The notes under the pieces were generated by a model. The model was given only the letters and a program-made list of their open reading frames with translations, did no database searches and had not been told where the DNA came from. A stretch of DNA of 64,000 bases. Source: Seison nebaliae. Lineage: Eukaryota. Each line of letters starts with the position of its first letter. The stretch's first letter is position 1. This document shows, one piece after another, positions 1-59,166 of this stretch. Where the stretch lies: NCBI GenBank assembly GCA_023231475.1, contig JALJEE010000927.1, positions 62,001 through 126,000 of the forward strand. Reading direction: 5' to 3'. Position numbers and translations under genes: made by a program.

Positions 1-388
1 TTGAGTTACGAGAGTTGGAGAACTACTAAAACAATGAGCGGCTGTCAACACTAAATTTACTGAATCAATATTTACACGTTATCTTGATTTATCTTAAAGA
101 AAACTTCCGATTGCAGTTCCTCCACAGAACCCAAGAGTACTATAGTCCATTCCACCAAATGAAAGATAGAAATTGAAAGTGACATAACCATTCATCAATT
201 CATAAATTCGATGATGCTCCTCATTTGACAAAATTGAATGAATGGATAAACCTGTTGAAATTGATGAAATATTTTAGAGAAATTCTGATAAAATAAACAA
301 AACCGTCAGATATTCGTTTATTGATATTCCTGTTCGATGTTAGTCTTATGATGAGAAGCATCAACATTATCAGGATAAGTTTCTTCAT
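1..388 (-). CDS. Trypsin-like (S1) serine protease, secreted zymogen; runs off the window start
   Basis: Exons 388-304, 251-105, 59-1 (introns 303-252 and 104-60, both GTT..AG) splice to MKKLILIMLMLLIIRLTSNRNINKR-ISDG...FCGGTAIGINLVLTAAHCF: signal peptide, activation site, CGG motif and catalytic-His motif LTAAHC. Absent from the ORF track. Confidence 0.85.
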
Positions 389-1626
389 CGAAATCAATTT
401 CCAATGTATTATTTACTTTTCATTTTTTGTCGAAGAAGAGAAAGATGATTTCAATTGAAAATATGAAGAAGAATAATAGAGTCATATAATTCTCATACGA
501 AAGTAAACAATTTCTTCCAATGAAGTCATGAGGGGAGTACAATACTTCGCTATTTATCGTCGTCATTGTCAGCCATCTTATTCTACTTATAATCATGCGA
601 ATCAAATCGGTGCCATCTCTGATGATGATGATAATAATAATGAGAGTGACAATATCGTCGTTAATTATACTTATTATTTCTGATGGAATTAAAAGTAGAT
701 TTTGAAGAGTCGAAATGAATACTTCACCGTAATCTGATACAAATAATTCGTTTCGCCTCGACCATCTTCATGGGATAGACGAAACAATACGAACAATCTA
801 ACGAATACCAAATGACATGTTTTCAATTTGATGATTGTCGTCCAGTTATTCTTCAAATTCTTCTTTTTTTCTTCCTTTTTCCATTCCATACGTACGAGTC
901 TGCTAATAGTCAATTTTTCCACGAGAGAATGATGAATAACTAAAATGATATTTACGAACGAGAAATTCTTTTATCTTTCCTCTTCTCGTCGCCAGAAGAA
1001 GAGAGTTGAGAGAGAGAATATAAATAAAAGGTTTTTCTCTTGTCAGTACCCGAATTCTGAAATTGTCAGTAGATTAATAAGAACAACAAAAATATTAAGA
1101 AGAAGAAGAAAGTGTAAGACGGAATTGAAGTCAATATCGAGTTTTCGCACCTATTCTCAGTGAATGGAACCAACGATAGAAAATTAATATTTATCAGGTT
1201 CTTCCAAAAAACGAATAGCGTTCGCCATTTATCTGACGACGTTGTCGATGACGATGACGATTCGTCTCACAATGAAGCGTGAGTTCTCCGTAACCAAATC
1301 CAGTGTTGCAATGAAGCATTTCATTCTTTGAATTAAGTTGACGATAGACGATAAATTTAGTGGATCACATTATGCTAAATATATTCTTTCATTATTCATT
1401 TATTTAATTTCTTTTCCGTTTTATTTTGTCGTTGTCAAAACTTATCAATTCTCTGATATTTATATTCTTTACGTTTCCTAATTCCAATAGACGTATAAAC
1501 AGTCAAATCTCGTCAAATATCAACAAGTGAATAGCTTCTACGATAAGAATAGATAAGAATTATGTGATTCATTTCGTGAATTCTATGAAACGTTTTGTAA
1601 CTCTCTCTTTATTGTTTAATTTCCTT

Positions 1627-1668
1627 CAACAACAACAACAACAACAACAAGAACAACAACGACGACGA
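1627..1668. repeat. (CAA)n/(CGA)n microsatellite
   Basis: caacaacaac... run grading into gacgac. Confidence 0.9.
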
Positions 1669-5194: not shown

Positions 5195-7498
5195 ATGGAA
5201 ATATCGACACAACCGATGCAACATCAACAAAGTAATTTAATGGTGGAAAGTAACGAGAGAATGAATGAAGAGAGATTGAAAGAGAAATTGCGAGAAAGTT
5301 CCGATTCGACAATAAACCAATCGGAAAGGGAAATTCTCCCACGAGAATATTCTCCACAATCGTCAACTTATTCAATGGAAATCGAGCATTCTATGACAAA
5401 TATTCCACAAACCGTTAATGATTTATCTTTACAACAAATACCGATGATCGATAAAGAGAATATTATTGGCGATATACAAAAATCGGGAGTGAAGAGAAAA
5501 AGACCATTTTCTGATATTCGTTCGAAAATTTCGAAAATAACGGCGAATGATGTTAGTAAGAAAAATGTGTTGTGTGGAAGGAATAGTCATTCGAATCCAC
5601 CAATCATCACACGAAGTTGGGAAGAAGCCGGAAAAGTAGCTTGGGATGTAAGAAATTGTTTAAAAAATCCATCAGACGTCTCATCTGACGATACCGATAA
5701 TCAATTGACAGATGAAACTTCTTCAATCAGTTTGATTATTTTAATTATTTCTTTTTAATTTTTATTCAAATTAGATGAAGCGAAAGGTGGATCAATTATA
5801 ATCGAATGTCCAAACATTTGTTTGTTAGACAGTGAAGATTTTTGGAAGAATGGCGCTCCACCAATGGAGATTACTCGTAGAGAGAAAATTGCAAAAGAAC
5901 TAATTCAAAACGGTTACGAAAAGAAGATTTGGTTACCAGTGATTGAAGTGGAATGTCATGAAACGAAAGCGTTATTACATAAAAGTAAATTTGGTTCTGG
6001 TGGTCGTGGCAAATGTATTGAAGTGAATAATCAATTAATGACACCGAATGAATTCGAAGAATTTGCTGGACGAGCAACTAGTAAAGATTGGAAACGAAGT
6101 ATTCGATGTGGTGGGAAACCATTAATTAAATTGATCGATTGTGGAGTGATGACTTGTCATGCTGTTTCGTGCACATGTTCCGCATGCAGTAACGATTCGT
6201 ATAGTACGGAGAAGATTCGATATTTTATTCGAGTACGTCGAAAAGTTCGTGTTAAACCGGAAGTAACCATAAAGAATTTAGATGGAAATTTTATTGAAAA
6301 TTTCATGGCTAATTCCCAAATGTCAACTCCATCACCGATTAATAATATTCCATTGAGCACACCCGAATCTCACTCATTCGATAATAATAGTAGTATGGAG
6401 AGTGGATTGTCACATTCTTTATTGTTGAATAATATGTCGTCAATGAACAATACGATCAAGAGTGAACCAGAACTATTGAATAATAATCAAGATATTAGTA
6501 ACGATAATCTTTATCAATCATCAAATGACGAACGAATAAATTCGAATTTGAATCGAATGAAAGATCCAAATAATAACAGTAAATTAACCAATTCTCAACA
6601 ATGTGATCCGGAGAACATAATAAATGCAATATTGAAAGTTCTCTCTCAAAACAATGGAAATAAAATTAATAATAATAATAATTTTAAGAATAATAATAAC
6701 AGAAGAAAAGATACGACGCGTTATGGGAAAAATATAATAATCGATGAATCGAATGGTGATATTGTCAATTCATCCAATGTCACAGAAAATAATGATAATC
6801 GTAAAATTGCTGAAGCTGTTCGAAATAATTTATTAAATAGTTCGAACATCCTTCCTAATAACAATAATAACAATTCTACAAAGAAATTTAATTTCCAAAA
6901 TTCTACTAATGATTTGGAGCAATTCAGTCGAACTTTTATGACACCAAATTCTCAAAATGTTCAAAATCGGATACAACCATCACCTACATCGCCATCTCAA
7001 AACAATCCGAATTTATGGAATATTTTATTAATTAATTTATTCCAAATCTTAAATCAACAACAACAAAATCATTTAAATAATACGAATGATAATTTTCATA
7101 CACAACAACAACAACAATCACCAAATAATGATAATGATATTAAACGTATAATAAATTTTCTTCAACGGAATGACAATGGAAACAGCTGGCAAAATAATCG
7201 TCGACAACAACAAACAGAAAATTTGAAAGGAAAAGAGATCGTTGAAAATATCACCACCGTTCGTCAACAACTCCAATCATCGTTGACAGTTAATTTCAAT
7301 TCTTCTTTCGTATTTTCTTCATTAATCTTCTCTTCTTTTCCTTTTCAGAGTTTGCAGACGACAATCGAATATGGTGTGAAAATGATGACAGAAATGAAGC
7401 AAATGTACGATCAATCTCAAGTAATTTATGATTCGGTGATAGGTATCGAGAGTAAACTAAATAATTTCATTCCAAAAATTCTTTCATTTGATGAATAA
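5195..7498 (+). CDS. DEAF1: DEAF1-like SAND-domain transcription factor (no MYND finger seen)
   Basis: SAND domain KFGSGGRGKCI...TPNEFEEFAGRATSKDWKRSIR...HAVSCTCSAC is DEAF1-type. Introns 5730-5774 and 7289-7348 join ORFs 5114 and 5822 in frame. N/Q-rich middle and C-terminal coiled coil. Start ATG 5195 is inferred. Confidence 0.75.
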
Positions 7499-8812: not shown

Positions 8813-10435
8813 ATGGGATCGAATTCAATAATGATAAACGTTAATCGTGAGATCGATGATGCATATTATCGATATAAGATGCCAAAGATCCAGGCGAAAA
8901 TCGAAGGTAATGGCAATGGAATAAAAACCGTCATTGTCAATATGTCTGCGATTGCGAAAGCTCTCAATTGTTCACCAGCATATACCACCAAGTTTTTCGG
9001 CCAAGAACTCGGTGCTCAAACGCAAATAATGCCAGAAAATGATCGGTGGATAATCAATGGAGTTCATGACGCTAATAGATTACAAGAAGTGCTTGATGTC
9101 TTCATTCGTGCATATGTTCTCTGTAAGTTCTGCAAAAATCCAGAAACTCAATTGATTGTGAGTACGAAAACAATTCGACAGAAATGTGCAGCCTGTGGTG
9201 AAATTGGACCTGTTGATATGAAACATCGAATTGCTAAATATATATGTAACCAAGCACCAAAAGTACCAAAGAAATCGAAAGTTGATAATAAATCAACTGT
9301 AGAAGTAAAGAAATCGGACGTTGAGAAGAAAGTTGGGAAGGAAACGAAAAAAACAACAAAGAAGACTGAAGTGAAATGGATAAGTGACATATCGAAAGAA
9401 GCACAACAACAACGTCTCAATGAGAATTTGAGTGGAATGGCACAACGATTAACGATTGATACATCTCATGCGAATGCATCTGAACAACAACGTTTAGAAA
9501 TATTTGATAAGGAATTGAGGTAAATAATTTATTTTTCTTTTAAATTAAATTTAATTAATAATAATTTATAATTATCTTTAGATCTAAATGTTCAAAGAAG
9601 AATTCTGATGGTTATTATGATTATTTATTGGAGACGAATACAGTAAAAGACATTGCTAATCGAATTGATGATTTGTCGGTGGAAGAGAAATCTCCATATG
9701 TCTTTGTTGAGATCATGTTCTCTGACAATATCAAAGAAGAATTGATGAAATATTCGACGTTGTTGAAATCAGTTATTTTTCTTAACTTTTTAAAAAATTA
9801 ATAGAATTATTAATCTGCATATTATTTCTAGTTATGCGCTGAACAGAAAACTCAACGTAATTTATTATTGTGCTTAGAGAAAATAATTTATGACAATGAA
9901 GAGAAGTTGATGAATCGAGTGGAAGTAAGTATGATATTGAAGAGTCTCTATGATGAAGATATCGTTGATGATGATGTGTTCATTGAATGGCAAAAGAAAG
10001 TTATCTTTTGATTCAATAATTTCGATTCAAATATCTCTTTCATTTCAGCCTCGAAAGAAGACGGTTTCAAAGGAAATTTCAAAGAAAATTCATGATCTCG
10101 CCAATGATTTCGTCAATTGGCTTGAGGAATCGGATAGTGAAGATGATGAAGAAAGTGAAGAAGAGAAAATAGAGGAAAAAGAAGAAACGAATGGGGAAGT
10201 GCCAGAGAAGAAACATACAAAATTCTCGGAAGAAAAATCAAATGGTGACGTTGTGAATGAGACGAATGATGTCGATGATAAAATTTATAAAATTCCTCAA
10301 GTTAACATTCATTATGTTCTCATGAAATAATTATGTTGTTTTTAGTCGAATTTATTGGGAAATCACGAGATGACAAATGGAAATTCGAATGAGGAGGAAG
10401 ACGACGACGACGATTTCAACATTGACGACATATAA
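8813..10435 (+). CDS. EIF5: Eukaryotic translation initiation factor 5
   Basis: N-terminal YRYKMPKIQAKIEGNGNGIKTV and C4 zinc ribbon; W2 domain (LKSLYDEDIV..EW..FVNWLEE); ends DDDFNIDDI*. Introns 9520-9581, 9772-9831, 10000-10048 and 10301-10345 keep the frame. Confidence 0.95.
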
Positions 10436-10572: not shown

Positions 10573-12033
10573 TTAAAATTTTTTCTTTTTTGAATTTTCC
10601 ATATAATTTGAAGGAATAGAATTGCGTTGGAAGAATTGTTTGATGAATAAATAGAAAGGATGAGGCCAATCGTACGAGTGGGGAACTCTAAAATGTATAT
10701 CCGATTCGAAATAAGTGAATAAAGGAAATGCCATTCGTAAACGTTTCTTATTTTGATTTTGTCTCGTATTTGCCATTGCATGATAATAGAGAAATAATCG
10801 TGAAGCGATATAATAAGCGACGAAAACATCGATGGAATAATGTTCGTGTGCAGCTAAAGTGCAAAATATACCAACTCCAGTTAACGACCAGCAAATGGTA
10901 TGAAGTAGATAGAATGAGGAGGGAGTGTATTCGGTTATGAAGAATGTTAAGAGAGTTAATATTGTTGTATGACCACTAAACATATAGTCACCACAAGTTT
11001 TCACCCCGTGAAGTGTCATGCCTAAATGTGTTATTATTCTCCATGCTCTTAATAAATGATCATTCCAATTCTCCAACATCTAATTGGAAAATGATTAAAA
11101 GTTTCTTTAATTTTTTGTTAATATGAATTAACCAGTTTTTCGCAAGACAAATGGGTACCAGGAACTGAAAGTGAAGTGATTAGCATAGTAATAGATCGAA
11201 GTAGAAAGATTGTTCCACTAAGAGAAAATAATCTTCTCAAAATGATAAAACGATATCGATGGAAGAAGAACAATATACTGAATGCAATCATCATACACAT
11301 AATGATGACTTCACTCAATAGAAATGCTCCATTGATCACAGGAAAATTATCCAGAAATATGTCAGGTAGTGGTGGATATTTCGTCATATCCGGAACTCTT
11401 TCGTGGACAAAAGTCAACACTAAAGACGACCAGAAAACGGTGAGAAGAATATATAGAAATCCAACAGTTAATCTTCGAATATTTGCTGTCAAATTCTAAT
11501 AATCATTTTTAAGCACATTCAAATTCCTCGAAATATTTATGTCACTAACCAAAAGTGGAACAACTGGATGTTGATCGAAGCTTAAGATATTTGACTGAAA
11601 AGATTCATAAGACTCCGTTGCACGACTCATTCTTGGAGTGCCGTCCTCTCCATGATTTCTTACTTTCTTTTTATTATTGTTAGTTTTATTAAGAAGAAGA
11701 ATTGATTCACATGAACTGTCACTAGAAATATCACAATCCTCTATAGCTCTCCCATTACCCTTGAATTAGAAGATGGAAATTATCCATTTCATCCAAAAGA
11801 ATAACCTTGTTCAATTTACTTAACGACTGAACAATATGTGTAACGGCACCGAAATTTTGTATAGATATCGGACTCCCGATTAAACGGTTTAAAGTCAAAT
11901 ATTTGATAGACTTCCCGTCACATCCATGTTCATCCACCAACAATTTTACATATTTTTCAGAAATATTTTCATCTAATAAATAATTTTCTAATTCTTTGGA
12001 TGACCAATTTTCATAAGGATGGATTACCGACAT
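10573..12033 (-). CDS. SAMD8: Sphingomyelin synthase-related protein (SAM + PAP2-like domain)
   Basis: N-terminal SAM-like exon; motifs [37 protein letters not shown]. Introns 11805-11760, 11549-11496, 11132-11080. Confidence 0.92.
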
Positions 12034-13831
12034 TTTTATCAAATCTATTCATCACTCAATATTCCATAATTTATTCGTTTAATCCTTAAATTTTAATGAT
12101 CTTCTCTTACTGTAAGATTTAGATAAGTTTAATTCGTTTTTCTAAATTTTAGCTGAATTAACCAAACTATATACGAAAAATAATTTATTCATATAAATGT
12201 CTTTCTCTTAACTCATTAGGCTACAGTGATTCATAAGATAATTCATTAGACTTAAGCAAATTTTATTAAGTTATGGCAGTTTTAGGGGACCGAATGCCCC
12301 TTTTGATTACACCAAAAATTCAATAAGGTCCTGTAAATTGTTTATACGTTTTTTTCCTTTTAATTTGATGTTCCCTTGTTAGTGTTTTTAGATTTTCTAT
12401 ATAACAATTTTATCTCAAAATTTTTAACAATTTACTTTTAAAAAATTAAAGCTTTCCAAATTAAAATATTTCAAAAATCCATGCTAAATAACTTATTAAA
12501 AAAATTAAAGTTAATCTAATTGTTCTAATTCAATTAGAAACTATACAAAAACATAAAACCTAATTTCAGCATAGTTTTCGGGAACAAATGGTTGTCTTTG
12601 GAATATATCGAGGAAAGTGACCATCATCCTTCACCTGAAGGAAAAAGTAAAACGAAACAATGAAAAGTAAATAATCCACAAATAATTTCACCAAATTCTT
12701 CCATTATTCAATCGCCACTTTCATCTTCTATAATTCTATATCTCGTCACATCCGTTTTAAAGACAAAAACGATGTAGCAGACGTTCACATCCGTCAATCA
12801 TTAATTCGGTTTCGAATGGAAAAATCGGTATTTTCAGTATTGTAAGACATGCACATGAAGGACGACAGTTGTCCTTACGGAAATACTGGAATTATCTGTA
12901 ATGAAAAGAACATTACACCGAGTACGTATTTGAAATGATAACAATATTCCCAATCAACAGAATAAAGATGAAAAGAAGAATTCTTTTAGATCAACAGGAA
13001 CTTTCTTTTATGTTCTTCTTTCAGATAAGAAACCTGATATAATGTATGCAATTTCTTACAATCTCTCAATGTGGCTCCTCAGAGTATATTCACCAATTTT
13101 TATCGATTTATTAATTTATCTTTTACCAATGACATCTGAGAACAATAATGGTTTCCGACAATCATTTGGAGAAAATTCAACGGATGTTTTGAAATCTCCT
13201 CGCAAATTAAGAAAAATTTAATGGTGACGTGCTCAAAAATAAAATCTACAATAAGAAAAAACTACAGTTATTTCTAGCATAAGAAATAAAATGCAAAGAT
13301 AGAAAGAAAATGAGGTTATTCAACTTATCCTCAATTTTTTTGCAAAGATTTATTTGCTGCATCTTTTTCAATTAATTCCATTCATTTCATGTTCCACTTC
13401 ATCCTATATCATGTCATTTTCATCCTATACTAATATCTAATGATATTCCATTAAACATAGTGGAAACAATACTATCGGAATATATGTCTCCTACGAAGTT
13501 CCCATCTGTCCAATTAGTTAAATAGGGAGAAAATTCAAACCGTTATAAAAGAGCGTTTGTTGATCACTTTTATGACTTATAATTTACCTAATGTCCCGAA
13601 AAATTACATATTATACTTTTATATTGCAATATAATGTATACTACTATGTAAAATAAACTAATAATTATTTTGCAGTAGGCGTAGCAGTCTGTTCTTCTTG
13701 GTTGAATTAATATATCTCTAAATATTTTTATGAACAGAATAATATGCTTTAGTAATAGTGCAAAATATTTACTGAAAAAATTAGTGTGTTCAAAAAATAG
13801 TTTAAATGTTTAGTCTTAATGTTTAATATAA

Positions 13832-14872
13832 ATGTTGCACGTGTGTTCACATTGTTCCAAGAGCTTCAATCGACCGTACTTGTTAAACGAGCATGTTTTA
13901 CACTTACATGAAAATAAAGTTTCACATTCTAAAATTTTCCAATATTTCATTTGAATTTTTATTCGATAGCGTGCTTTCCAATGTACGTATCCACAATGTT
14001 GTAAAAGTTATCGGAGACAGAAAGATTTGTATCAGCATGAAAGGACGTTCCATATAAGTGAAGATGAGACGGCATCGAACAAGGAGATGGTAGAGAGTTG
14101 TGGAATTAAAAAGAAAAGGAGAGCTCGATCATACAAATGTTATATACCTAATTGTAAAGAAATTTTTAAAACGAAAATTGATTTCCGGAAACATGTAAAC
14201 GAGAAGCATAATGATGAAGAGATTCCTCTTTCTGATATGAATGATCAACGAGAAGAGATTGAATCTGTAAAGTTAAAGAAAAGTTATGAATGTGACCGTT
14301 GTGAAAAGAAGTTCGTTAGTCTTTCTAAATGGAGTAGACATCGAGCAATTCATCACAATAAGATTTGTGAGCATTGTAAACACACTTTCAATTCCATCAA
14401 ATTACTCACCAAACATTTGAAAAAAGAACATGGAAGAATTGTTGAATGTAAAGATTGCGATAAAAAATTTCTTTCTAGTACATATCTCAAATCACATCAG
14501 AAACAAATTCATGAGAAAAATTCAAAATTCGTATGTGATAAATGTCAGCAAAAATTCAGTACTAGATCCGGATTAACGTCGCACGAACGATTTAAACATT
14601 CTCCGTTACTTAAATGTAATTTTAAAAGTTGTCCGGAAACTTTTTTAACTGAAAAATTATTAACAAATCATTTGACTAATCATCATTCTGATGAAAAATC
14701 GAACAATATATATCGATGTGTGATAGAAGATTGTGGTGCGAAATATTCTCATCGGTCTCAATTGAGTCTTCATGAAAGTTTCTTCTCATTTTTAACAATT
14801 TCAATAAATTCTTTATTATTTAAAGCCAAACATAAAAATGAGGAAAAGAAAGATTTAGAAAGTGCCAATTAA
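13832..14872 (+). CDS. C2H2 zinc-finger protein with nine fingers, TFIIIA-like
   Basis: Exon 1 (13832-13918, MLHVCSHCSKSFNRPYLLNEH) joins through intron 13919-13969. Removing intron 14778-14825 completes the ninth finger (H-E-T-K-H). Confidence 0.8.
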
Positions 14873-16622: not shown

Positions 16623-17042
<420 letters not shown>

Positions 17043-25100: not shown

Positions 25101-26288
25101 ACCACCTGTACCCATACCACCGCCATCAGTTCCAATTGAGTCATCAAATACCAATCAGACATCGGATACTCCAACAATCCTCAAATTTCCTGTAGTGCCG
25201 AAACTATCAGAAGTATATACGGAAACGATAAAACCTGAAAAAACGAGTAAAAAGAAATTCCTTTACAAAAAAGTAGATGAGACAAATGAAGATATCTCTA
25301 CAACAACAAGCGAAGTTAGTGTTCAACAAAAAACTTTTTTATTCAAAATTCCCTTTTTTCTAACATCACAATGGAAAAGATTGACTTTCTTTTAATGTTA
25401 AATGGCATAGTCCAAGTAACTTTACACAAAAATGATGCAGCCATCACTGGAATAATTTCCCGTACACATTCTTCGCTCTTCTCCTGTCTGGTCCTTAGGC
25501 AGAATGTTGAGATAATAAATACTTTTTAATATTTCGATTTCCTTAATTTCTCATATATTGCTTCGAACAAATTTCGTGCTATCACTCAATTCATTTGATT
25601 CAAATCTGAACTATTAAAAATATTGAATTGGTTAATTTCTTTTATTATTCTTTAGTTGGTCAATATTTGGGGAACGGTTATTACCAAAGTGATGATGTTA
25701 TCACCGAAAGAAATTCGTCCAATACTTCAACGAATTACATTATTCGAGGACAAAATGGAAGAAACTTACCAATATATTCGTTATTTATATTCCATATTTT
25801 TCAAATGTTCATTGGCGTTTTTTAGTTGATAATGTTCGAACATTAAACCATTCGGATAAGAAGAAAATTAGAAATGTCTTAGCGAAAAAATTTACTAGTT
25901 AACTTCTTCTTTGATCGATCCTTTTAAAGATTTATAAATTTAGAGAAAATGAGCAGTAGAAATATCAAAGCGTATAATATGATATCAAAAAAGGCTGAAA
26001 TCGAATATTCGAAAACATTAAAAAATGTCATATATGAATTGGAGTTTAGTCCTTTCTTTTCTTATTAAATTTTTATTTAATTTAGATCGCAAGTAACATC
26101 GATACGTATTCAATTAGATACAACAGAGGAAGAAGATTTTAGTGAAGATAAGATGAAGCGTCAAGAATTAATGTTGAACGAAACATCGGAGATGTTGAAA
26201 GCATATAAAGACTTACAGTTCTTTTTTTCTTGTTAATTTTTTTACAAATTTCTTTTTGTTTAGACATTTTTTTTCTGGTTCTTCCTAA
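22125..26288 (+). CDS. EHBP1: EHBP1-like protein (NT-C2, calponin-homology, C-terminal bMERB-like coiled coil)
   Basis: Starts MWSKFMRIGQTAVKYTF; EYSDKIWSLVIE; CH domain LLEWCK..FTNSWHNGLALCAIV. About 9 GTT..AG introns (e.g. 22490-22538, 22734-23002, 23121-23219, 25315-25655) give a continuous frame. The 3' exons are less certain. Confidence 0.8.
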
Positions 26289-32500: not shown

Positions 32501-33104
32501 ATATAATGCATAATAATCATAGAAAAATCATACCAGCAATTCCGACCAAGAGCCGTTGCTAAAATTGGAATATTATTTTCTTTCACTAACGTCTCCACAT
32601 CAATGAAGAAGATATCCTCATTAATGAAATCGATTGAATATGATTCATTGCCAATATATCTATCTAATTGGAAATGGAAATAATAGAATAGAATTTACTT
32701 GTTAAAAAGGAAAACTTTGTCCATCCAATCTCTTCAGACCAAGTTGTTGGAATTATTGGTAATTCATCTTGAGAAATTGCGAATAGATTTGCGGAATGTA
32801 AATAATCAGAAATCTCCTTTTCTATTTCAATTTCATATCGATTAAATAATGATTCTTCACTCCATTGAAACGGCAAAAATTTGAGAAATTTCTCCAATGA
32901 CTTTTCGTCAATCTCATTTGACTCTTCATTCGAAATTAATTTCCATTTTTGAATGTTCTTCAAATTGTTTTTTAAAATTTTTTCATTATCTTTCTGTTCG
33001 TCAATAGAATTATTTAATAAAATTTTTTTTGTCGCATTTTTATCGAATATTTTAATTCCGAAACAATTTTTCACTTTCACAAAACTTTTATAATTCAATT
33101 TCAT
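29600..33104 (-). CDS. POLG: Mitochondrial DNA polymerase gamma catalytic subunit
   Basis: Exo I FIDVET, Exo [12 protein letters not shown], Exo III YCANDV; Pol [15 protein letters not shown], Pol [14 protein letters not shown], Pol [10 protein letters not shown]; seven short introns; ends KEIFN* at 29600. Confidence 0.95.
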
Positions 33105-34155: not shown

Positions 34156-36009
34156 ATGAGAAATTTATTATCAATTTTATTATGTTTCGTTTTTGTCCAA
34201 TCTCTCTGGTGTTTGTTGGATGACCCGAAGAAGAGTGTGGGTGAACCATGGCCATTACCACAAACATATTGGAAAGGAGAAAATAAACTCATAATTTCTC
34301 CCGAACGGTTTCGTGTTCGTCTCTCCGTCGGTTCTTATGAATGTGCTACTTTATTAGATGGGATAAATCGATTATATGGAACTATATTCATTCCAACTGA
34401 TTATGTCCGAAGTAATTATGGATTAGATGGGAAATATTTGAAGAATAAATTAACGAATTATTTTAGTAATATGAAGAATGATGGAAATAATGATGGATCT
34501 GTGGATTTGTTGGAAGTGAATTTAAAGAAAGAATGTGAATACTTACCATCATTAAATATGGATGAATCGTATCAATTGAATGTAAAAGGAAATAGTGGAA
34601 GTTTAAACTCATCATCTATCTGGGGAATATTGAGAGGTTTGATGACATTCTCTCAATTAGTCCATTCCAATTTTACCACTAACGAATTATTAATAAATGA
34701 AGTAACAATTCAAGATTTCCCTCGTTTTCCTCATCGTGGTGTTCTAATTGATACAGCGAGACATTTTCTTAGTATGAAAGTTTTAATGAAAAATATCGAA
34801 GCATTGGCACAATCCAAATTTAATGTATTTCATTGGCATATTGTCGACTCGCAGTCATTTCCTTATTCGAGTCAAACATTCCCCGCATTGAGTGAGAAAG
34901 GAGCATATAATCCAACGACGCACGTTTATTCTCCATATGACGTACAAACAGTGATGGAGCAATGTCGTCTTCGTGGAATTAGATTAGTACCTGAATTTGA
35001 TACACCAGGACATACCGATTCATGGATTGGTGCCACACCAGATTTTCTCACTAAATGTTATAGTGAAGGTAAACCGAATGGGAAATATGGTCCAATAGAT
35101 CCATCGAGAGATGATAATTTCCAATTTCTCAAATCATTTTTCATGGAAATTTATACCATTTTCTTGGATGATTATGTTCATCTGGGTGGAGATGAAGTAT
35201 CTTTTGCATGCTGGTTCTTCACCTTCTTCCTACAATTTTAAATAATTCTTCTTTAGGGAATCTAATCCTGATATTGAAGAATTTATGAAGAAACATTCAT
35301 TCGGAACTGATTATTCGAAATTGGAACAATTCTACATGGAAAAACTCTTATCAATTATTCACAATTTACCAACAACACATGACAATTTCTATATAATTTG
35401 GCAAGATGTGATAGATAATCATGTCGTCGTTAATAATGAAACCATCGTTCAAGTATGGCTAGGTGTCTGGCAGGAAAAATTACGTGAAATTACAGGAAAG
35501 GGATATCGAACATTATTATCATCTCCATGGTATTTAGATCATATTCATTTTGGAACAGATTGGACTGATTATTATAAAGTTGAACCTTTAGCATTTCCAG
35601 GTTAAAATTTTAATTAGTAATTATGACAACTTCATACTATCATAGGTACAAGCGAACAAAAGAAATTAGTTATCGGAGGAGAAGCTTGTTTATGGGGCGA
35701 ATTTGCTGATAATACGAATTTTGTAAGTCGTTTATGGTTTGTGTTGAGTTTATATATTTTTTTCTCATAATTTTGTTAATAGGCCAAGAGCATCTGCAAT
35801 TGCCGAAAGATTATGGAGTTCTAAAGAGACTACAAATTTAGCTGATGCTGAATTAAGATTAAACGAACATCGATGTCGATTAGTTAAGTTAATATTACAT
35901 TTTATTTACAATAATGCAGCAATAACCAATATAATTCGCATTTAGAAATGGTATAGGCGCTGAGACTGTAAGTGGCCCAGGTTTCTGTCAAATTGAATAT
36001 GAAGAATAA
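34156..36009 (+). CDS. Beta-hexosaminidase (GH20), HEXA/HEXB-like
   Basis: Signal peptide; [24 protein letters not shown]; catalytic [29 protein letters not shown]. Introns 35214-35256, 35601-35645, 35737-35782, 35888-35945. Confidence 0.94.
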
Positions 36010-36927: not shown

Positions 36928-39062
36928 ATGATTCTCAAAATTTATCCGTTTATCAAGTTCATTTATTATCGTCCTTCTTAGATTCTTATCAATTTCTAGT
37001 ATTCATTTCTTTTGTTTTTTATGCTTATCATTTTTCAATCAAATAACATCTTTCAATTTCCGACTACGTGATTATGCCAAAAGAACAAATGTGGAACATC
37101 TTCCATTGCATCGAGCTTCTAAAGCGTTAACTCGTTTGTCTGCTAATTGGAAAGGACCTGATTTGGAAGCATTTCGAATTGAACCATTGTGTGACGTAGA
37201 CCTCATATCAAAATGGTTTGATATTATTAAACTGCCATTTAAACTTCCAAAATCAGCAAATCAATTGACCATTGTTAAGTTTTTAAGAATTGTTATTGAA
37301 ATCATATTTGAAATAAATAGACGGCATTAGTTGAAACTTATAATGGTTATAAATTACGTTTCAAGAAAATGACCGATGACAAATGGACGTTCGGTTATAA
37401 AATAGGTTTTCAAAAATATTCTACCGAATTATTAATCGATTGAACAATATTTCCAGTTGCTAACTATAGTGATGAGATTGTCGTTCTATCGAATATCGGC
37501 AAGGCATTCGCTAAATATCCATTGCATTGCCATATAAATTACGACACTACTTATCTATCTAAATCTTCTGGTCACAGTAAAACTCAACAAACTTATTTAA
37601 GTTATTTTTGGAAATTTTTTAAATAAACTCAAAATATTTTTGTTGTTTAGGAGAATTTCCGAAATTATATTATAGTACATTCCATGGATCGTTTTGTCTT
37701 ACCCAATTATCAAAAAATGATTACGATCAAAAACTTCAAAATTTTCCTGATTTGAATTCAACGAAAGGATTTCTAGCATTCTTTTTATTTATACTGCGTC
37801 AAATACAAATTCTACATTTCTCACTAAATGAGAATGCTGTTTACGATACTTTGTTTAGTAGTGAAACTTATGCCAATGCACATAACCATGTTAATATTCA
37901 GAATATGAAAATGACTAAATCGAGACGGTATCTTCATGATGTTCCATTTCTCACCAATGGAGGTAGTAGTATATCGAAATTCTTCAACTCGGAAGAAGAT
38001 GTGTATAGTCATGTCTACAATCAATTATTGAGAAGTGAATTAAAAGCCAATTCGAATTCTCATGTTGGAAAAAATCGATTGTTTAACTATTGGCAAAATA
38101 TGGATTTCTGTAAAAGTTTGATAGTGATCATTGAAGCATTCATTTCAACACCAACACATTATGATGGTGAGAATACGTTTATTTGTAAACGTTTAAGATC
38201 CAATTTACAAAATTTCAAGAAGACACCAATACTACGTCATTTACCTGTAACTACTACAATTAAACAACCCATTTTATTTCCCTTAATTTATTTGTTATTA
38301 GATGGAGTTCAATTCTTTTCTAATTATGAAACTTGGATTCAACTTACTAAATTCTTATCAACAACAGAATATAATTCAGAAATATCAGAAGAATATAAAA
38401 CTCCTCCTCGACCTTCAACAATCGAAAAAGATGATATGCATACACCACCCGATGCTGTTGCTAAAGTCAAATATACCATCTCTTTAAAACGTCTTCAAAA
38501 TCCATATAAGAATAAAAAAAAAGTTATATTAGAGAAATTAAATGATGAAGAAAAAAGTCCGGAACTAAAAGAAAGACCTCCAGTCCATCTCGGAGATAAC
38601 ACACCGATTATTGAACCGAAACCTTATATTAGTAGTGAATCATCAGATTCAAGTGTCGAATTTAAAAGCAACATCAAGAAAAGTCTTTGTAGAAAAAAGA
38701 AGTGTAAAACTGGAACATTAGAAATTCCATTGAAAAACCCTCCAATAAATATTGACTTACAATTGAACGCAATGGAAAAAGATCCATTTGAAGATAGACC
38801 ACATCCATCAGATACATTTAAGAGTCCGGAAAAACATTTAGTAAGAAGGAAAAGTACGAAACGTCAATCAATATTCGAAGAGATCGATTCCGTTCCAGTC
38901 GACAAAATAAGACAAATGGCAAAAAGATTTAAAAATTTAAAAGAAAAGTGCGCAAATTGTCCGCCTCAGGAAAGTTCTTCAGAAGAAAGCTCTTCAGCAG
39001 AAAGTTCATCAGAAAATGAGTTGACACCAAGAACTAGTTCTGCTGATGAAGCATTGAGATAA
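36928..39062 (+). CDS. Orphan, probably secreted protein with charged/Ser-rich C-terminus
   Basis: Four GTT..AG introns link a hydrophobic N-terminus (IHFFCFLCLSFF) through ORF 37091 into the 436-aa ORF 37752 in frame. No recognised domain. Confidence 0.6.
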
Positions 39063-39239: not shown

Positions 39240-39872
39240 TTATTGAGAATAATCACGTTGTACTTTTCCTGGTTCATAATTTCTATCGATCACCGGTTCT
39301 TGTAAGAATATATGCAATGATCTCTCATTCTGTGCAAGTGGATGACCGGCAACTCTATACAAAACAATTTATAATAATTTATCATTTATAATTTCCAATT
39401 AACTTGTTAATGAAATTCTCTAAATCTTTTCTTCTTTTCTCGATAAATTCAGGTTCGAATATTCCGTCGTCACTTCGGAATGGCAATTGTTTCGTCCATG
39501 CTTTCCCAGGTAACGTAGGAACGACAATCTATTAGAAATTGAATGAAACTATCAAAAAAAAAAAACAATTCAAACTTTACTATCACGTTCCAATTCATTT
39601 CGTAACCATTGGAAATCACTATATCGACGTCGGACACTTGAAGATTTCATTCGGAAAATTGGTAAATTCGTCTAACAATTGTAAGAGATAATATGTGGAG
39701 AAGATGAATGAAAAAATAAAACTGTCATTGATACCTCGAAATCGGTATATCGTCGTCCACCAAATCCATGTGTTTCAGGATTCCTCACATCGATCTCTAA
39801 GAAATTAGCAGGAGGTAAATATGCTGTATCAAGATTCTGTTGTTTCTGGTCGATTCGCTTTGTCGATGTCAT
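39240..39872 (-). CDS. SNX3: Sorting nexin 3/12 (PX-only)
   Basis: AYLPPANFLEIDV, RRRYSDFQWLRNELERDSK, VVPTLPGKA, GHPLAQNERSLHIFLQ across four exons. Confidence 0.93.
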
Positions 39873-40614: not shown

Positions 40615-42840
40615 ATGTGGACTAATAAGCCAAAAACAGCAACTTCTTTCGTTCCGTCAATGGCGAGAAAAACGGAAGAAGATGATGAATGGGAAACCGA
40701 CCCAGATTTTAAAGTTTTGTTTCCAATTAAATTTGTAACGACATTACTCGTTAATAAAAGAATGAGACGAATGAAAAGGAACAACGATGGGGAGCTAAAA
40801 CGATAAAAAATTCAGGTAAACAGGAAAATATAAAGTTCTTCTTTAATTGTCAAAAGATGAAGAATAATGTTGAAGTATGGAGAAGTTGAGAGAGGAGATA
40901 ACTGAAGTTAATTTAACCAAAGAAAAAAAGAAAAAAAACGATCAAGCATTCGGTTATGGTGGAGAGTTTGGTGTGCAAGAAGACCGTTTTGATGATTGTG
41001 CCGTATCGGCAGCTTATCTACCACAATCTGAGAAACATTCCTCACAAACTGGTAATTTATTTCACTATATTAAAATTTGCTTTTATTCGATTAACTAACG
41101 ACATTGTTGGAAAAACAATTGAATGAAAATAGATTATGCTAAAGGATTTGGGGGAAAGTTCGGTATTGATGAGAATGGAAAAGATAAAAATGCTGAAAAT
41201 TTCGATTATATTCCCAAATTGAATGTACATGCGTCACAGAAAGGTTATTTGATCATTTAGGAAATTGGGAATGGATTTAATTGTTGAAGATTATGCGTTT
41301 GGTTTTGGAGGGAAGTTCGGTGTGCAGAAAGATCGTGTTGATCGTTCAGCTTGTTCATATGATGAAAGAACGAAATTAAATTTACATCCATCTCAAAAAG
41401 GTTCAATTTAATCAATGGTCGAAATTCAAATATTCATTTTACAATTATAATTGTTAGATCATAAGAAAGGTTTTGGTGGAAAATTTGGAGTTGAGAAGAA
41501 TGATGAATCAACGAAAGATGTGAGAAATATTGCTCCATTGAGTACTCATTCATCACAGAAAGATTATAGTAAAGGATTTGGTGGGAAATATGGTGTAGAA
41601 AGTGACAGAAGAGATAAATGCGCTGAAGGCTTCGATTATCAAAGTCGATTACATCAGCATGATTCACAAAAATGTTTTTAAAATTTCTTCTATTTATTTA
41701 ATTCTTATCGATTCTTCTCATTTTTTTTATAATTTCTTTAATTTTTTTTTTTCTTTTTCATTCTTACATTTAGCCAAGATAGGAGAATTGTCGTCGAATA
41801 ATGTGGGTGAAAAGAAAGAAAAATTTTTGAGAAATTTACAAGAAACAAATAATAAAAACCGTGAGGAACCATTAAGAGTGAAAGGGAAATCGATTGAACA
41901 GAAAATGAAGGAATTCAATGTCGGACAAAATACGAGAACTGAAGAAACTGTTAATCAAAAGGAGAGTATTCAATCAGAAATTGATAATTTGAAATGTTCA
42001 ATAAATCAACGAAGAAAAGAGTTTTTTTTATTTCTTTTCCAAATGTTTCATTTTATTTACCACAGATTCGAAATGAATATTAATGTACACGATGAGAAAT
42101 CATCATCAAATAACCATTCGAATGGAATAATTTCACAAAACGGTTTTAACAAGCCAATTATTGTGAAAGAGAAAATTGCAGAAATTTCAAATCACCTCAG
42201 AAAACCGATTGAAGAATGTGTTGATAAAACACCAGAAATTCTCAACAACATAAAAGAATCAGAAATCATAAAAAACGAAGCACAAACGGAAACTTCACAA
42301 AGCTTAAAAGAATCAGAAATCATTAAAGATGAAACTGAAGAGAAACCTTCAAAAACTGTAACTGTACCGGAAATTTCGAGAACTATGAAAGAGAATAAAA
42401 TTTCAGAAAAACAGTCTGAGATTGCGAAAGAAATTGAAAGGAATTTTGAAGAGATATCGTCATCTGGTAAGCATATTTATGTTAATGATCTTCCATCGTT
42501 AATTTCAAATGAAACAAAAAATAAAGAAGAAAATATTTATATGAATCTCTCACAAATTGAGAAGAAGAATTCGATTGATAATAACGAAGAAGAAAAGAAG
42601 GAAGATAGCGATGTAATATCAGAGTTCGAAGTTCGAGCACTTTATGAATTTAATGGACGAGAAGAAGATGAATTGACGTTCAAAGAAAATGATATTATCA
42701 CCAATGTAATAGAAGTTTATTTTCAATTGAACATTTGTAAATTCATAAAAATTGATTTAAAGATAGATGAGGGTTGGTGGCGAGGTCAATGTAATGGAAT
42801 AGCCGGTTTATTCCCAGCAAACTACGTAACAAAATTATAA
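40615..42840 (+). CDS. CTTN: Cortactin
   Basis: N-terminal acidic [10 protein letters not shown]; five cortactin repeats ([15 protein letters not shown]), mostly one per exon; C-terminal SH3 ([18 protein letters not shown]) completed by removing intron 42715-42762. Confidence 0.93.
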
Positions 42841-43700
42841 AATTATTTATTTATTTCTTTCTCCCATAAACATTCCATTTTTAAACGTTTTGCATTTTCA
42901 TTATAGCACGATTAAGTTCATTATATACATTCCCTTTAAATAAAATTTACGAAAAACGTAAAAAAAATGTGAGAAATTCTTTCGGTTTTTTCTCGTTGTT
43001 TTGAATTTTGTTTGAATAAGTTTTAGATGGAAATGATTTGAAGTTCAAATAAAATGTAAAGAAGAAAAATGAAACTTTTAAGTCTCCTCAGTTGGAAGAA
43101 GTTGACAACTAAAATTTTCTTTTTTCTTTCTTATTTTCTCCTTTTCGATTACTACTACTGCGTTTTCTTCAACTATACTCTCTAATTATGTATCGGAACT
43201 TCATTCTATTCTATATCTATTTAAACTGTTTCATTTTTATTTCATTCTTAACTAAAACTTATCCTAGGCTTTTCTAAAACTTTTAGTGGTTACTCGTTTG
43301 ATCCTATAGAATCTTTCATTTTTCTGGCATTTTTCCTTTAGAAACTAGCGTTTACCGAATAATTCGAGGTAAAGTTTATAATTAGATGATTTTTTTAAAA
43401 ATGAAATGTTTTAGGTAAAAGAGATGTGGAAAAATTAAATACTACCGATAAATCATGGGAAAGAAAGTCGTTTGACAAAGGTTTCTTTTTAAAATTCAAA
43501 CAATTTGTTTATTTCCTTAAGAAATTGTTAAATTGATAAAAAATGCGGAAATTAAAACGGAACGAAGTTTTTTTCCTTTCCATTTAGTGATTCTGTTAAT
43601 TTTCAATAATCAAAGATAATGATAAGAAAAAATTAGACGAATTGTTGAAGCGTTAAATTTCTTAATATACTCCATTCTTATACTTCCTCACTTTCCTCAG

Positions 43701-44438: not shown

Positions 44439-45322
44439 TTATTGAGGTAAAATTATCTGTCGAAGGAATATATCAGAACCGTTCATAATTTTTTTTTCTT
44501 TGTCCACCACTTCCTTTATGGTTCGATTCCCATAAGTGGTCAGATCAATCTCATCTTCAGTGTATAGGACGAATCCGTTCAAATCAACTTTAAACTCTTC
44601 ACACAACTTTGATCGGACATGATTTATTGTCCAATAATTCGGGAAGAACATGTCGACTGTTTCCCTCATTTTTCCATCGATGTCTAATGAACAATGTAAA
44701 TAAATTTTGATATTTTCATCGATATTATTTGTAATTTTCCCACTACTGTTGATAAAACAACTTTTCGCTTTCGATTTGAGTCGCATCAAAGCTACTTTAA
44801 TTCCCAACGAATTCTTCTTCTTATTCTCTCGAATCTTCTTTTCAATTTTCGAATGAATATTCTTATTTTGAAGTTCCATCACTTTTTCTTTGTCATTCTT
44901 AATTTTCTCGACAGATTTCTTCATACAATCATGATCACCTGAATGACGATGTCTATAATAATGGAAGATGTCATAAACAATGAAAATTGGAGAATAATAA
45001 AATATTGGACTTGATACAAAACAATTGGGAACAATCGTGACAAGGATCAGATGTCAAATAAACTTTTCCTTTGCAATCAATTTCAGCACATCGTTCATCT
45101 CGATAAATATTCTCAATTTTTCCTTTTTCTTCATCTGATAATTCATCTTCGTATTTCCCACAACTTTCTTGGTGAATGGCAAAACAATTTTTACTAAACA
45201 AACAAATTCATCGTTTTGAGATCGTAAATAAAATTTTACCAGAATTTTTTTATACAATATTGACAATTGATGGGAAGAAAGTCTAATGTTTGACATTTCT
45301 CACAATGCTTTCCGATATCCAT
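44439..45322 (-). CDS. ZFAND1: AN1-type zinc finger protein 1
   Basis: MDIGKHCEKCQTLDFLPINCQYCIKKFC; second AN1 finger ...FCIKHRHSGDHDC; KVALMRLKSKAK and a C-terminal ubiquitin-like region; two introns. Confidence 0.88.
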
Positions 45323-46282: not shown

Positions 46283-46703
46283 ACTAATGATTTAACTTAA
46301 CGAAATATAAAGTGAACAAAATTCCTTTCTTAGTTCTAATTTTCGGTTTAAACGCACTTTGAGCTTGTTCGAATTCAAGTGCGCTTAATTATCTCGAATT
46401 AGGCGGACAATAATACGGGTATTTAATTCTCGTTTATTTATCAAATGAAATACGAATGACAAATTTTAATTTTCTTTACTTTTAATTTTTTCTCATTTTT
46501 ATTTTCTTCGAGTACTAAATCTCATCTTTTCTTATCGTCATATTTCCTTGACTGATTGATATTTATCAAACAAATGAATAATCTCTTCACATTCATTATA
46601 ATTACTTGTTAGATCTCAATTACTAATTACTATTGTTTTTATTATTTTTTTTAGATCTTTCTTTGGGAAGTTGAAAATTTCTCTTCTTTTTTAAACTCTT
46701 TAG

Positions 46704-47412
46704 ATCACTTATTTTAGAACTAACCACTGCATATCTTCTACCTAAACCAACTCCAAAAGTTCCGCGGAAAAAGTTTTAATTTTAGATAAACAAAACAATA
46801 TTTCGATATTATTTTAGTCAATACAATAATTCAATTAACAATGAAATAGGAATTGAAGGAAGTATAAAAAATGAAGAGAATGAACAATTAGAAAATGTTA
46901 TACTCAATCAATTATCGGAAGGAAATGATCTCATTATCGATCCTGCAACACTTATTGAGAAAATCTTTGAACAATTTGACGATATTCATGATAATTTAGA
47001 TAGTGACATTATTACACAAAACAGTCCGATAAACGAAGACAGATATTATGTAATAAATCCAAATATAAATAATCAGATCGGTCACATGGACCTGTCAGAA
47101 AATTTGGAATCAGATACAGAGGAGCTTTCTAATAATTTGGAAGAAGCGGATATCATTGAATTTAGAAATGGAGTTTCTGATGAACCAAAAGTTCCAAATA
47201 AACGGAACATTCTCCATAAATTAAAAAATGCAAAAATCGATAATTCGAAAGAAAATAAAAAGTTTTCGAAACCTCAGAAGAAAAAAGTTCAGAAGAAGAA
47301 AATTTCAAAAAAGCATATTCAAAAGAAAAAAAATTCGAAGAAACAACATCAGAACAAGATGACACATTTAAAGTTAAAAATACAGACGACCAACACCATA
47401 ACTTTCATTTAA
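46704..47412 (+). CDS. Hypothetical acidic then Lys-rich protein, 5' end unresolved
   Basis: Frame open from 46818 to 47412; joins upstream in phase through intron 46773-46817 (GTTTTA..TAG). Confidence 0.35.
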
Positions 47413-56504: not shown

Positions 56505-56594
56505 TGCCCCGGGTGAGGATCGAACTCACGACCTTCAGATAGCTTATATTTTTGATTATGAGACTGACGCGCTAACCAACTGCGCTACCGAGGC
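56505..56594 (-). tRNA. Elongator tRNA-Met(CAT) with a 16-nt intron
   Basis: GCCTCGGTAGCGCAGTTGGTTAGCGCGTCAGTCTCATA[ATCAAAAATATAAGCT]ATCTGAAGGTCGTGAGTTCGATCCTCACCCGGGGCA; acceptor stem pairs; A and B boxes; intron 56556-56541 at position 37/38; T-run terminator just downstream. Confidence 0.95.
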
Positions 56595-57083: not shown

Positions 57084-58148
57084 ATGGGAAGTAACACTTC
57101 CCATGACTCGAAAGGGTCAGTGGAACTATTTTTTCAGAAGAAATTAGAAACAATGAAAAAAGATTTTGAAGAGATTTGGATGAAAGATCAATGTTCTAGA
57201 GAAAGTTTGAGAAGTTTCGAACCGTTAAGAACGATTGGTGCTGGTTCGTTTGGAAGAGTGGTTTTAGCTAGGCACAAAGAGAACAATATATTTTATGCTC
57301 TGAAAATGATGGATAAAGAGAAGGTTGTAAAAAGAAAACAAATTGAACATACTTTAACCGAAAAGAATATTCTTTCTGCTATAAAAATGGATTTCATTGT
57401 TACCCTTCATTATTGTATGCAGGATAGTACGACTTTATATTTCGTCCTCTCTTATATACCAGGTGGAGATATGTTTAACTATCTTCAGAAAGTAGGTAGA
57501 TTAAATGAAGATAATGCTAAATTTTACGCATGTCAGATACTTTTCGCTCTAGAATATTTACACACACTCCAAATCTTATACAGAGATCTTAAACCGGAGA
57601 ACGTCATGTTAGATAAGAACGGTTATATTCGTTTAACTGACTTAGGTTTTGCTAAGCAAGTTACTGAACGTACTTGGACTTTATGTGGTACACCAGAATA
57701 TTTAGCTCCGGAAGTTATTCTCTCGAAAGGTTATGGCAAATGTGTTGATTGGTGGGCATTCGGTGTGTACATTTACGAGATGACTGCTGGATATGCACCA
57801 TTCGTTTCTGATGAACCTATACAAATTTATGAGAAAATTGTTTCTGGAAAAGTAACTTATCCCACACATTTCTCCACTAAACTCATTCATTTACTTTGCG
57901 GTCTTTTGGAAGTGGATGTAACAAGAAGATTAGGTAATACTCATCCAGGTGTAGCTGCTATTCGGGGTAACAAATGGTTCCGTAAAGTTGAATGGATTAA
58001 AATTTATCAACAACAAATACCACCTCCATATGTTCCATTAATAACTTCAGAAACAGACACATCGAATTTTGAGAAATTTGCAGAAAAAGAAATGACAAAT
58101 GCGACTACTTCCAATAAAGATTATAAAACTATTTTTGCCAATTTTTAA
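57084..58148 (+). CDS. cAMP-dependent protein kinase catalytic subunit, intronless
   Basis: MGSNTS myristoylation-type start, GAGSFGRV, YRDLKPEN, RTWTLCGTPEYLAPE, DTSNF and C-terminal FxxF (FANF). Confidence 0.92.
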   Translation: MGSNTSHDSKGSVELFFQKKLETMKKDFEEIWMKDQCSRESLRSFEPLRTIGAGSFGRVVLARHKENNIFYALKMMDKEKVVKRKQIEHTLTEKNILSAIKMDFIVTLHYCMQDSTTLYFVLSYIPGGDMFNYLQKVGRLNEDNAKFYACQILFALEYLHTLQILYRDLKPENVMLDKNGYIRLTDLGFAKQVTERTWTLCGTPEYLAPEVILSKGYGKCVDWWAFGVYIYEMTAGYAPFVSDEPIQIYEKIVSGKVTYPTHFSTKLIHLLCGLLEVDVTRRLGNTHPGVAAIRGNKWFRKVEWIKIYQQQIPPPYVPLITSETDTSNFEKFAEKEMTNATTSNKDYKTIFANF

Positions 58149-58371
58149 GTTCATAAAATATCAAATTATCACTCGGATACCTTCCTAATCATTTCAATTC
58201 TTTCCCGTAAATTTTTTATTTTCACAACTTAATGTCATTAGTCCAAAGATCATCTTCAAATTGTTTATTTATTTTTATCTCTTTTATAATTTCAGGTTAC
58301 TTTTATTTCTTATTATTATTATTTTATTTTCATTCATTGAACATTCACACGAACAATAGTAATCGGTCGAA

Positions 58372-59166
58372 ATGATAAAAACGGTTTTGATTTTCAATCG
58401 TCATGGGAATATACGCTTCTTCAAAACATTCACACCTATCGTTAGTTCATTGATAGATTTATTATGTAAAAGTTAAATGTGAAAAGGATGTAAAAAATCG
58501 AACAAAATTGAAACAATATTTATATCTTGAAATCAATAAAAGAACGAGAGACAATCCTTTATTTTTTCATATACCCAGGTTATTATTCTAAATATTTTAT
58601 GTTCTGACTCTAGAATTTTTCAGTTCTGAATTTTATGAAGAAGAAGAAGAAGTATTGACTGTTATTTATCGAAAATTTGCTACATTATATTTCGTATTCA
58701 TTTGTGACGATTCTGAGAATATATTATCCGTCATCGATTTCATACATGTTTTTGTTGAAGTTTTGGATAATTATTTTAATAACGTCTGTGAATTGGATAT
58801 CGTATTTCATTTCAATGAAGTTCATAATATTTTTCTTTGTTTATAATATATTTCTTATTCTTCACTTTATTCTTCTCAGGTACATGATATATTTAAAGAG
58901 ATTGTTCATAATGGAATAGTTATTGATACATCGGTATCTAATATATTGGAGAATATAACAGAAGAGAAAAATAAGGCGGCGAATGAAGTTACTTTTTCTT
59001 TCGAAATTTTTTAATGTATTTATCATAAATTTAGTCATCATTAATGATATATGGGAAAGATAAAATTGATAAAAATCAATCAATACGGAAATTTATTGAA
59101 CATTCTCCTTATCAGGTGGAAAAGAATTATGCATCAATAGTTCGTAAAATTCGAAGTAAATTGTAA
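58372..59166 (+). CDS. AP3S1: AP-3 complex sigma subunit
   Basis: MIKTVLIFNRHG, YRKFATLYFVFICD, NVCELDIVFH, VHDIFKEIVHNGIVIDT across five exons with GTT..AG introns. Confidence 0.82.

Follow-up and report, generated by a model that had tools for sequence, protein, structure and literature searches.

Which 5′ splice sites does an animal use when hardly any of its introns begin with the expected GTR (R, purine)? Animal donors of the major class follow GTRAGT, and the base at position +3, overwhelmingly a purine, faces nucleotide 6 of U1, a small nuclear RNA (snRNA). The question is raised by a stretch of 64,000 nucleotides from Seison nebaliae (contig JALJEE010000927.1, positions 62,001–126,000; hereafter the window), in which a preliminary description had noticed that about 90% of introns begin with GTT. 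The rotifer S. nebaliae lives epizoically, and its compact genome measures ~46 Mb (PMC8351084; published work is cited throughout from those parts of each paper that were accessible). As judged from gene-model introns, this donor code is real and apparently undescribed in an intron-rich animal, and the splicing machinery of S. nebaliae likely reads intron starts differently.

GTT is the prevailing intron start

The count is based on 63 introns from 16 genes on both strands. Curation reduced 62 introns to 60 of tiers A and B, with two low-confidence GTT introns put aside; the set of 63 comprises these 60, one put-aside intron and two more donors, from the deposited model. A 64th intron of low confidence (36948, GTT) was kept out of the count. 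GTT opens 56 of the 63 introns (89%; 95% confidence interval 79–95%), GTA six, GTC one and GTG none. The dominance of GTT reported in the preliminary description (about 58 of about 64 introns in 16 genes) therefore holds in an independent annotation, as do its single GTC and missing GTG, although the GTA donors number six rather than five. The six donors that it quoted as examples (5730, 9772, 10000, 13919, 35214 and 58441) read exactly as given. A purine at +3, as in the typical animal consensus, occurs in only 6/63 donors, and GTRAG in 1/63. The share of G at +5 is low, as had been noted, at 12/63 (19%) rather than about a quarter. T at +3 prevails on both strands (35/39 and 18/21) and in 15 of the 16 genes. 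The real GTT share is probably 77–90%.

Base composition does not account for this bias. The earlier argument, by which AT-richness should raise A and T alike, was somewhat loose: T outweighs A in intron bodies (T 0.48, A 0.31). T follows 41.8% of GT sites in the window, 37/67 of those in intron bodies (55%) and 104/211 of decoy GTs near donors, and the conclusion that composition is insufficient still stands (56/63 versus 55%, p = 7e-9). Within the 60 tier A and B introns, T occupies +3 in 53 and +4 in only 24 (40%; p = 4e-8). Given backgrounds of 42–55% T and no more than 40% T at +4, the bias is position-specific. Relative to intron bodies, A at +3 is below its frequency (p = 1e-4) and C at +3 is depleted (1/60, p = 0.004).

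Further support for the donor calls

We ran a blind gene finder whose model includes GT/AG, codon usage and intron composition and length but gives no score to donor positions +3 to +8. It placed T at +3 in 22/26 and then in 28/33 short introns.

Deposited S. nebaliae (Seisonidea, Rotifera) models provided a further check, since three of these genes (SNEBB_004274, SNEBB_004275 and SNEBB_004281) are exact matches in the window. The top match of the RPL4 exon is SNEBB_004274, with the next matches at ~62%, and SNEBB_004281 (cortactin) and SNEBB_004275 (a CH-domain gene) match the window at 100%. For each of four deposited proteins there was a single exact parse across introns, and the 22 distinct donors in these parses comprise 20 GTT and two GTA (p = 3e-4 versus 55%); the parses permitted GC donors and used none. 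For SNEBB_004275, eight donors had been fixed before the deposited model was consulted; all eight agreed, and one acceptor differed. The cortactin introns were taken from the deposited model, which is therefore no second opinion on that gene. That two isoforms with a cassette exon were deposited suggests transcript evidence behind these models.

Hidden Markov models (HMMs) were built from non-Seison homologues of RPL4 (60), cortactin (60) and hexosaminidase (52), all subsets of the hits and the last two length-filtered. The called donor ranked top in 16/16 introns among frame-compatible alternatives within 30 nucleotides (nt), and 14 of these donors are GTT. Seven of the 16 introns had a GTA or GTG competitor, and margins ranged from 1.9 to 60 bits. 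In the sorting nexin 3/12 gene, an in-frame GAG|GTATCA lies 12 nt upstream of donor 39722 and is read through: the alignment with the solved SNX12 structure continues over the codons past it to the GTT donor. The seven competitor cases tested by HMM and this one all come out as GTT.

Contigs from sequencing run X2, at ~86% identity and about one tenth of the main depth, align to cortactin exons (40976–41226 and 41563–41676). They are replaced within intron 41052–41132, and their alignments stop past GTAATTT (41058) and, at the other site, precisely at the end of GTT (41676). These contigs represent a second diverged lineage or a paralogue, and they back two introns (donors 41052 and 41674); that GTT is common to the diverged lineage is a hint from one site. 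In runs X1, X2 and X3 the contigs are genomic and continuous, lack joints of intron size and say nothing about expression.

Intron anatomy and couplings

The introns are short (median 49.5 nt), are of the GT-AG type and restore the reading frame (n = 63). Their donors follow the pattern (A/C)AR|GTTW (W, A or T), in which +3 is nearly fixed, +4 to +6 are nearly free and exons end in A-A-R. Across the 63 donors, -3 is A in 32 and C in 15, -2 is A in 37, and -1 is A in 32 and G in 23; on the intron side, +3 is T in 56, +4 is A in 29, T in 25 and G in one, +5 is G in 12, and +7 to +9 are T-rich. Outside the GT, information is highest at +3 (0.52 bits), followed by -1 (0.43 bits), with +5 at 0.08 bits. 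The 60 curated introns use 32 distinct donor hexamers. The consensus GUUAGU implied by the preliminary description is rare (GTTAGT in 4/60), as constraint is confined to +3 and positions +4 to +6 are close to degenerate. No U12-type RTATCC donor was present among the 60 donor hexamers.

Two couplings are new here. G at -1 accompanies all six GTA donors and 17/56 GTT donors (p = 0.0016), and A at -1 is favoured in GTT donors (30/53 versus 19.8 expected by codon position). A is enriched at each of exon positions -3, -2 and -1 (30, 32 and 30 versus ~20 expected), and T at +7, +8 and +9 (32, 33 and 36 versus 25.2 expected).

At the other end of the intron, the branch-point motif YTRAY (Y, pyrimidine) occurs in 25/60 introns versus 28.8 in shuffles and hence shows no excess. 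Acceptor position -3 is T in 50%, A (AAG) in 25% and C in 23% (n = 60). With several acceptors also lacking a pyrimidine tract (e.g., cortactin 40760, 40875, 41132 and 42526), the intron end, like its start, is weakly marked.

Comparison with known systems

The closest parallel is Entamoeba, whose GUUUGU(U) donors go with a co-evolved U1 ACAAAC (Roy and Bowser, 10.1101/2022.06.08.495308); it is the only +3U lineage described in the accessible text of that paper. Common to both systems are U at +3 in ~90% of major-class donors, an AT-rich genome and an excess of U near +7. Entamoeba is, however, an intron-poor protist with a strict six-mer (88–90% GUUUGU), whereas Seison is an animal with ~4 introns per intron-bearing gene in the window, constraint only at +3 and GTTTGT in 2/60 donors. 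Seison further differs in its +5 G share of 19%, its A-A-R exon ends, its G|GTA minority and its alternative isoforms. The Seison donor system works like the Entamoeba +3U system and is not a member of it.

Human atypical 5′ splice sites include GUU donors read by shifted or bulged U1 through pairing of U+3 with U1 A7 (PMC4856993), as in one explanation weighed below. Such human donors are rare and keep a displaced AAG core, whereas in Seison GTT is the rule; of the displaced core A+4, A+5, G+6 and U+7, A at +4 and T at +7 are mildly enriched and A at +5 and G at +6 are not. The AG//GUNNN class, which depends on U5 loop 1, shares with Seison its exon-side information and a weak match of +4/+5 to the U6 ACAGA box (PMC11732430). 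That class has A at -2, G at -1 and a free +3. In Seison, A stands at -2 in 37/63 donors, but A exceeds G at -1 (32 versus 23/63) and +3 is U with few exceptions. The GURAG class makes up about half of human donors (PMC11732430), compared with 1/63 here.

Candidate mechanisms of +3 recognition

The preliminary description attributed the bias to a lineage-specific variant of the spliceosome, for example in U1, U1C/Luc7/Prp8 or U6. A lineage-specific change in recognition of the 5′ splice site is borne out, as the bias is position-specific and far above composition and GTA is tied to G-1; this support does not extend to the component at fault. In established models, +3 lies opposite U1 nucleotide 6 and, at a later stage, opposite U6 G44; the pairing partners of the exon end are U1 nucleotides 9–11 and loop 1 of U5 (PMC11732430; numbering also in PMC4856993). 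We tentatively favour, at somewhat less than an even chance, a major spliceosome that picks U at +3 by pairing with an adenosine in the 5′ end of U1, most simply through a U-to-A change at U1 nucleotide 6. With A at this position, U+3 would be the sole Watson-Crick partner, A+3 would be mismatched and depend on a G-1:C9 pair for compensation, and both G+3 and C+3 would be at a disadvantage. Loop 1 of U5, which is U-rich, would hold the A-A-R end of the exon, with little contribution from the ACAGA box of U6, +5 being G in so few donors. Both the G-1 dependence of GTA donors and the lack of GTG are predicted from A at U1 nucleotide 6. A U1 changed in this way has a precedent, not named in the preliminary description, in Entamoeba, where U1 ACAAAC matches GUUUGU (10.1101/2022.06.08.495308). 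A selector that accepts U and rejects C at +3 suggests an adenosine or a protein as its partner rather than unchanged U6 G44, and the depletion of C+3 likewise speaks for A and not G opposite this base. By hydrogen-bond count, U-to-A at nucleotide 6 was the best of 33 single U1 changes (area under the curve (AUC) 0.777 versus 0.671). Residual signal in the normal register is seen at +4 (23 A versus 16.8 expected) and +5 (8 G versus 4.0), and the register-discriminating positions of 53 donors match in register 83 times versus 71.1 expected (p = 0.04).

Several observations weigh against a changed U1. The AUC gain of the nucleotide 6 change is largely circular and the ranking of U1 variants depends on the scoring: folding energies reverse it (A at nucleotide 6, 0.679; canonical, 0.713; best, U to A at nucleotide 2, 0.814), and a bulged register on canonical U1 comes close to it (AUC 0.749). 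One fixed base within a degenerate site is unlike the strict six-mer of Entamoeba. U1 is unchanged despite atypical donors in Giardia, Trichomonas, 69 Saccharomycotina, Thecamonas and Mamiellales, although the atypical donors that coexist with canonical U1 are mostly changed at +4 (10.1101/2022.06.08.495308). The enrichment of A-1 together with T at +7 and +9 fits a register shifted by +1, in which most donors would lie one base out of step on canonical U1, by that shift or by a bulge at +2/+3. U+3 would then pair with A7 and A-1 with U10, leaving the G|GTA minority in the normal register. Such pairing accounts for A-1 in 30/53 GTT donors and for G-1 in all GTA donors; the T excess at +7 and +9 lies mainly in the A-1 class (21 versus 14.2 expected at each, p = 0.01), the shifted positions match 99 times versus 87.9 expected (p = 0.07), and both shifted and bulged registers have been validated in human cells (PMC4856993). 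Its strongest pair is missing, however, with +6 G at 5 versus 4.0 expected; +5 A stands at 15 versus 16.8, and +8 A and -2 C are not enriched. With T enriched at +8 as well, the T run may amount to a simple U tract, and the human +2/+3 bulge classes comprise only tens of sites (PMC4856993). We consider such displaced pairing unlikely as the general rule in Seison, although the 53 donors do not themselves separate in-register from shifted pairing (p = 0.04 versus p = 0.07).

Canonical U1 could also act in its canonical register, with U+3 chosen at a later step or by proteins and U5 loop 1 holding the A-A-R end. Candidate selectors are a wobble with U6 G44, a U6 ACAGA box changed at that base, altered U1C, LUC7, PRP8 or SNRNP27K, and a protein of the TIA-1/Nam8 type that binds the U-rich start of the intron. 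The interaction of +3 with U6 G44 is normally weak (PMC11732430), Entamoeba GUUUGU is said to permit more U6 pairing, and most lineages with atypical donors have kept canonical U1 (10.1101/2022.06.08.495308). The A enrichment at exon positions -3 to -1 and the T run from +7 to +9 are consistent with selection of this kind. Against this, unchanged G44 should take C+3 at least as well as U+3, and C+3 occurs once in 63 donors; the scarcity of G at +5 also means that the U6 helix is not obviously strong. We regard this explanation as somewhat unlikely, at a chance not far below that of a changed U1. Finally, unchanged machinery might merely appear altered through T-skewed introns, relaxed selection and an annotator's preference for GTT among alternatives. 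The T-skew of intron bodies and of their GT sites described above would contribute, and every donor counted is a gene-model call. For 18 of the 53 GTT calls there is a frame-compatible GTA or GTG, which, were all of these calls wrong, would lower the share to 35/60 in the worst case; the 26/60 introns with a single frame-compatible donor comprise 20 GTT and six GTA (20/26 T). A looser ab initio run gave 41 T, 8 A, 4 G and 4 C among 57 donors; this count was not used, as the run fused adjacent genes and placed introns in the single-exon H3 gene. An artefact is nevertheless very improbable given the contrast between +3 and +4, the deficit of A at +3, which is contrary to a decayed GTA consensus, and the agreement among blind finder, deposited models and foreign-protein HMMs, including the eight pre-set SNEBB_004275 donors.

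A search of the 64-kb window for snRNAs, U1 and U6 among them, found none and only a transfer RNA (tRNA). A metagenome scan for U1 with A at nucleotide 6 returned 13 stretches with no Rfam match at the gathering score, which we take as chance, in a collection that need not include Seison.

Genes and other features of the window

The counted introns lie in the following genes, with donors given by their first base. A partial gene on the reverse strand (60–303; introns 303–252 and 104–60, both GTT), placed by frame continuity, we take from an LTAAHC motif to be a trypsin-like protease; Pfam was blank for the exon tested. On the forward strand follow a SAND-domain gene (5730–7348, PF01342; introns 5730–5774 and 7289–7348, both GTT) and an eIF5-like gene (9520–10345, PF01873; donor 9520 is GTA with G-1, and 9772, 10000 and 10301 are GTT). 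A presumably sphingomyelin-synthase-like gene (11080–11805, reverse; donors 11805, 11549 and 11132, all GTT) was placed by frame continuity; next comes a C2H2 zinc-finger gene (13919–14825, forward, PF00096; donors 13919 and 14778, both GTT). RPL4 (SNEBB_004274; 17707–18841, reverse) has donors 18841, 18599 and 17757, all GTT, supported by an exact unique parse of the deposited protein and by the non-Seison HMM.

SNEBB_004275 (22223–26263, forward), presumably EHBP1-like, has two deposited isoforms with exact unique parses and 10 distinct donors, all GTT (22223, 22490, 22734, 23121, 25315, 25506, 25780, 25898, 26044 and 26218). Its cassette exon (25380–25505, within 25315–25655, forward) is present in one of the two isoforms, and the donor of this exon, GTTGAG, is the only one of the 63 with G at +4. 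A DNA polymerase gamma-like gene (29659–32715, reverse; PF00476 and weak PF18136) carries seven introns, with GTT at 32715, 32310, 31863, 30013, 29878 and 29713 and GTA with G-1 at 32533. The beta-hexosaminidase gene (35214–35945, forward; PF00728) has GTT donors at 35214, 35601, 35737 and 35888, each ranked first by the non-Seison HMM. An unnamed forward gene (36948–37650; donors 37274, 37406 and 37601, GTT) was placed by frame continuity only, and the sorting nexin 3/12 gene (39355–39722, reverse; donors 39722, 39575 and 39403, all GTT) by the SNX12 alignment from the Protein Data Bank.

Cortactin (SNEBB_004281; 40714–42762, forward), with an exact unique parse and the non-Seison HMM, has nine introns, seven GTT and two GTA (41052 and 42467, both G-1). 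A second unnamed forward gene (43369–43700), again placed by frame continuity only, has a GTA donor with G-1 at 43369 and GTT donors at 43481, 43567 and 43652. What we take to be an AN1 zinc-finger-like gene (44953–45239, reverse), traced by continuity of its Cys/His motif, contains a GTA donor with G-1 (45239) and the single GTC (45010). A NONO/PSF-like gene (PF00076 and PF08075) has one GTT intron (54661–54611, reverse), and an adaptor-complex sigma subunit gene (58441–59115, forward; PF01217) has GTT donors at 58441, 58579, 58820 and 58988. For the polymerase, eIF5, adaptor subunit, AN1 finger and protease genes, junction continuity was judged by known motifs and frame.

Candidates omitted as unsupported are 26560–26760 (possible GTC near 26679), the 3′ end of the 45491–46291 gene (possible GTC at 45513 and 45462), a possible last NONO intron (GTG 54534 or GTT 54507), 46600–46800, 43200–43340 and the degraded-looking 2000–2700 and 12540–13400. 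Adding the omitted GTC and GTG candidates would lower the GTT share by a few points. Regions 2000–2700 and 12540–13400 (both reverse) hold coding-like pieces interrupted by stops and frame shifts and may be decayed genes or the remains of transposons. At 28500–29400, three sequencing runs show higher depth, variants and broken contigs, which mark a likely repeat or element remnant.

Long intronless genes on the forward strand (57084–58148, protein kinase; 59468–61183, unknown; 61581–63200, arginine methyltransferase) adjoin intron-dense ones. An intronless H3.3-like gene (16629–17039, forward; 137 aa) has an additional glycine in its N-terminal tail (STGGGVKK). The tRNA (56505–56594, reverse; CAT anticodon, Rfam tRNA 56.7 bits, given no assignment by ARAGORN) contains an insert of ~17 nt right behind the anticodon, between positions 37 and 38, where tRNA introns usually sit, and reads by eye as an elongator tRNA-Met. 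Introns in tRNA-Met are typical of plants rather than animals.

Discussion

A sizeable minority of GTT donors is known in nematodes. As the preliminary description had advised, we looked for earlier reports of the bias and found none on GTT donors in Seison or another animal, in a search that had most subscription journals and figures, including logos, outside its range. The text of the Seison genome paper holds one match to "splic", which is unrelated, and its two supplements none; the main text of a 2025 syndermatan paper holds no such match. For bdelloids, monogononts and acanthocephalans we found no donor data in the literature, the accessible part of PMC3464624 offering no more than a GGT junction motif. 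Assemblies are publicly available for Seison, bdelloids, monogononts and an acanthocephalan.

Animal donors are regarded as having a purine at +3 almost without exception, and spliced aligners have this rule built in, minimap2 and miniprot preferring GTR (PMC12766944); an animal with ~90% GTT breaks this rule. Seison is intron-rich and its signals are weak, so that in a genome-wide switch both donor types would have had to function side by side for a time. The G|GTA minority may be a trace of this dual-donor period. It is possible, if somewhat doubtful, that Seison is the first animal with a rewritten 5′ recognition end in its main U1, a change that evolved together with the switch from GTR to GTT in tens of thousands of introns that are degenerate and alternatively spliced. 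The finding bears on the question, posed in the Entamoeba paper, of the co-evolution between splice signals and their reading machinery (10.1101/2022.06.08.495308).

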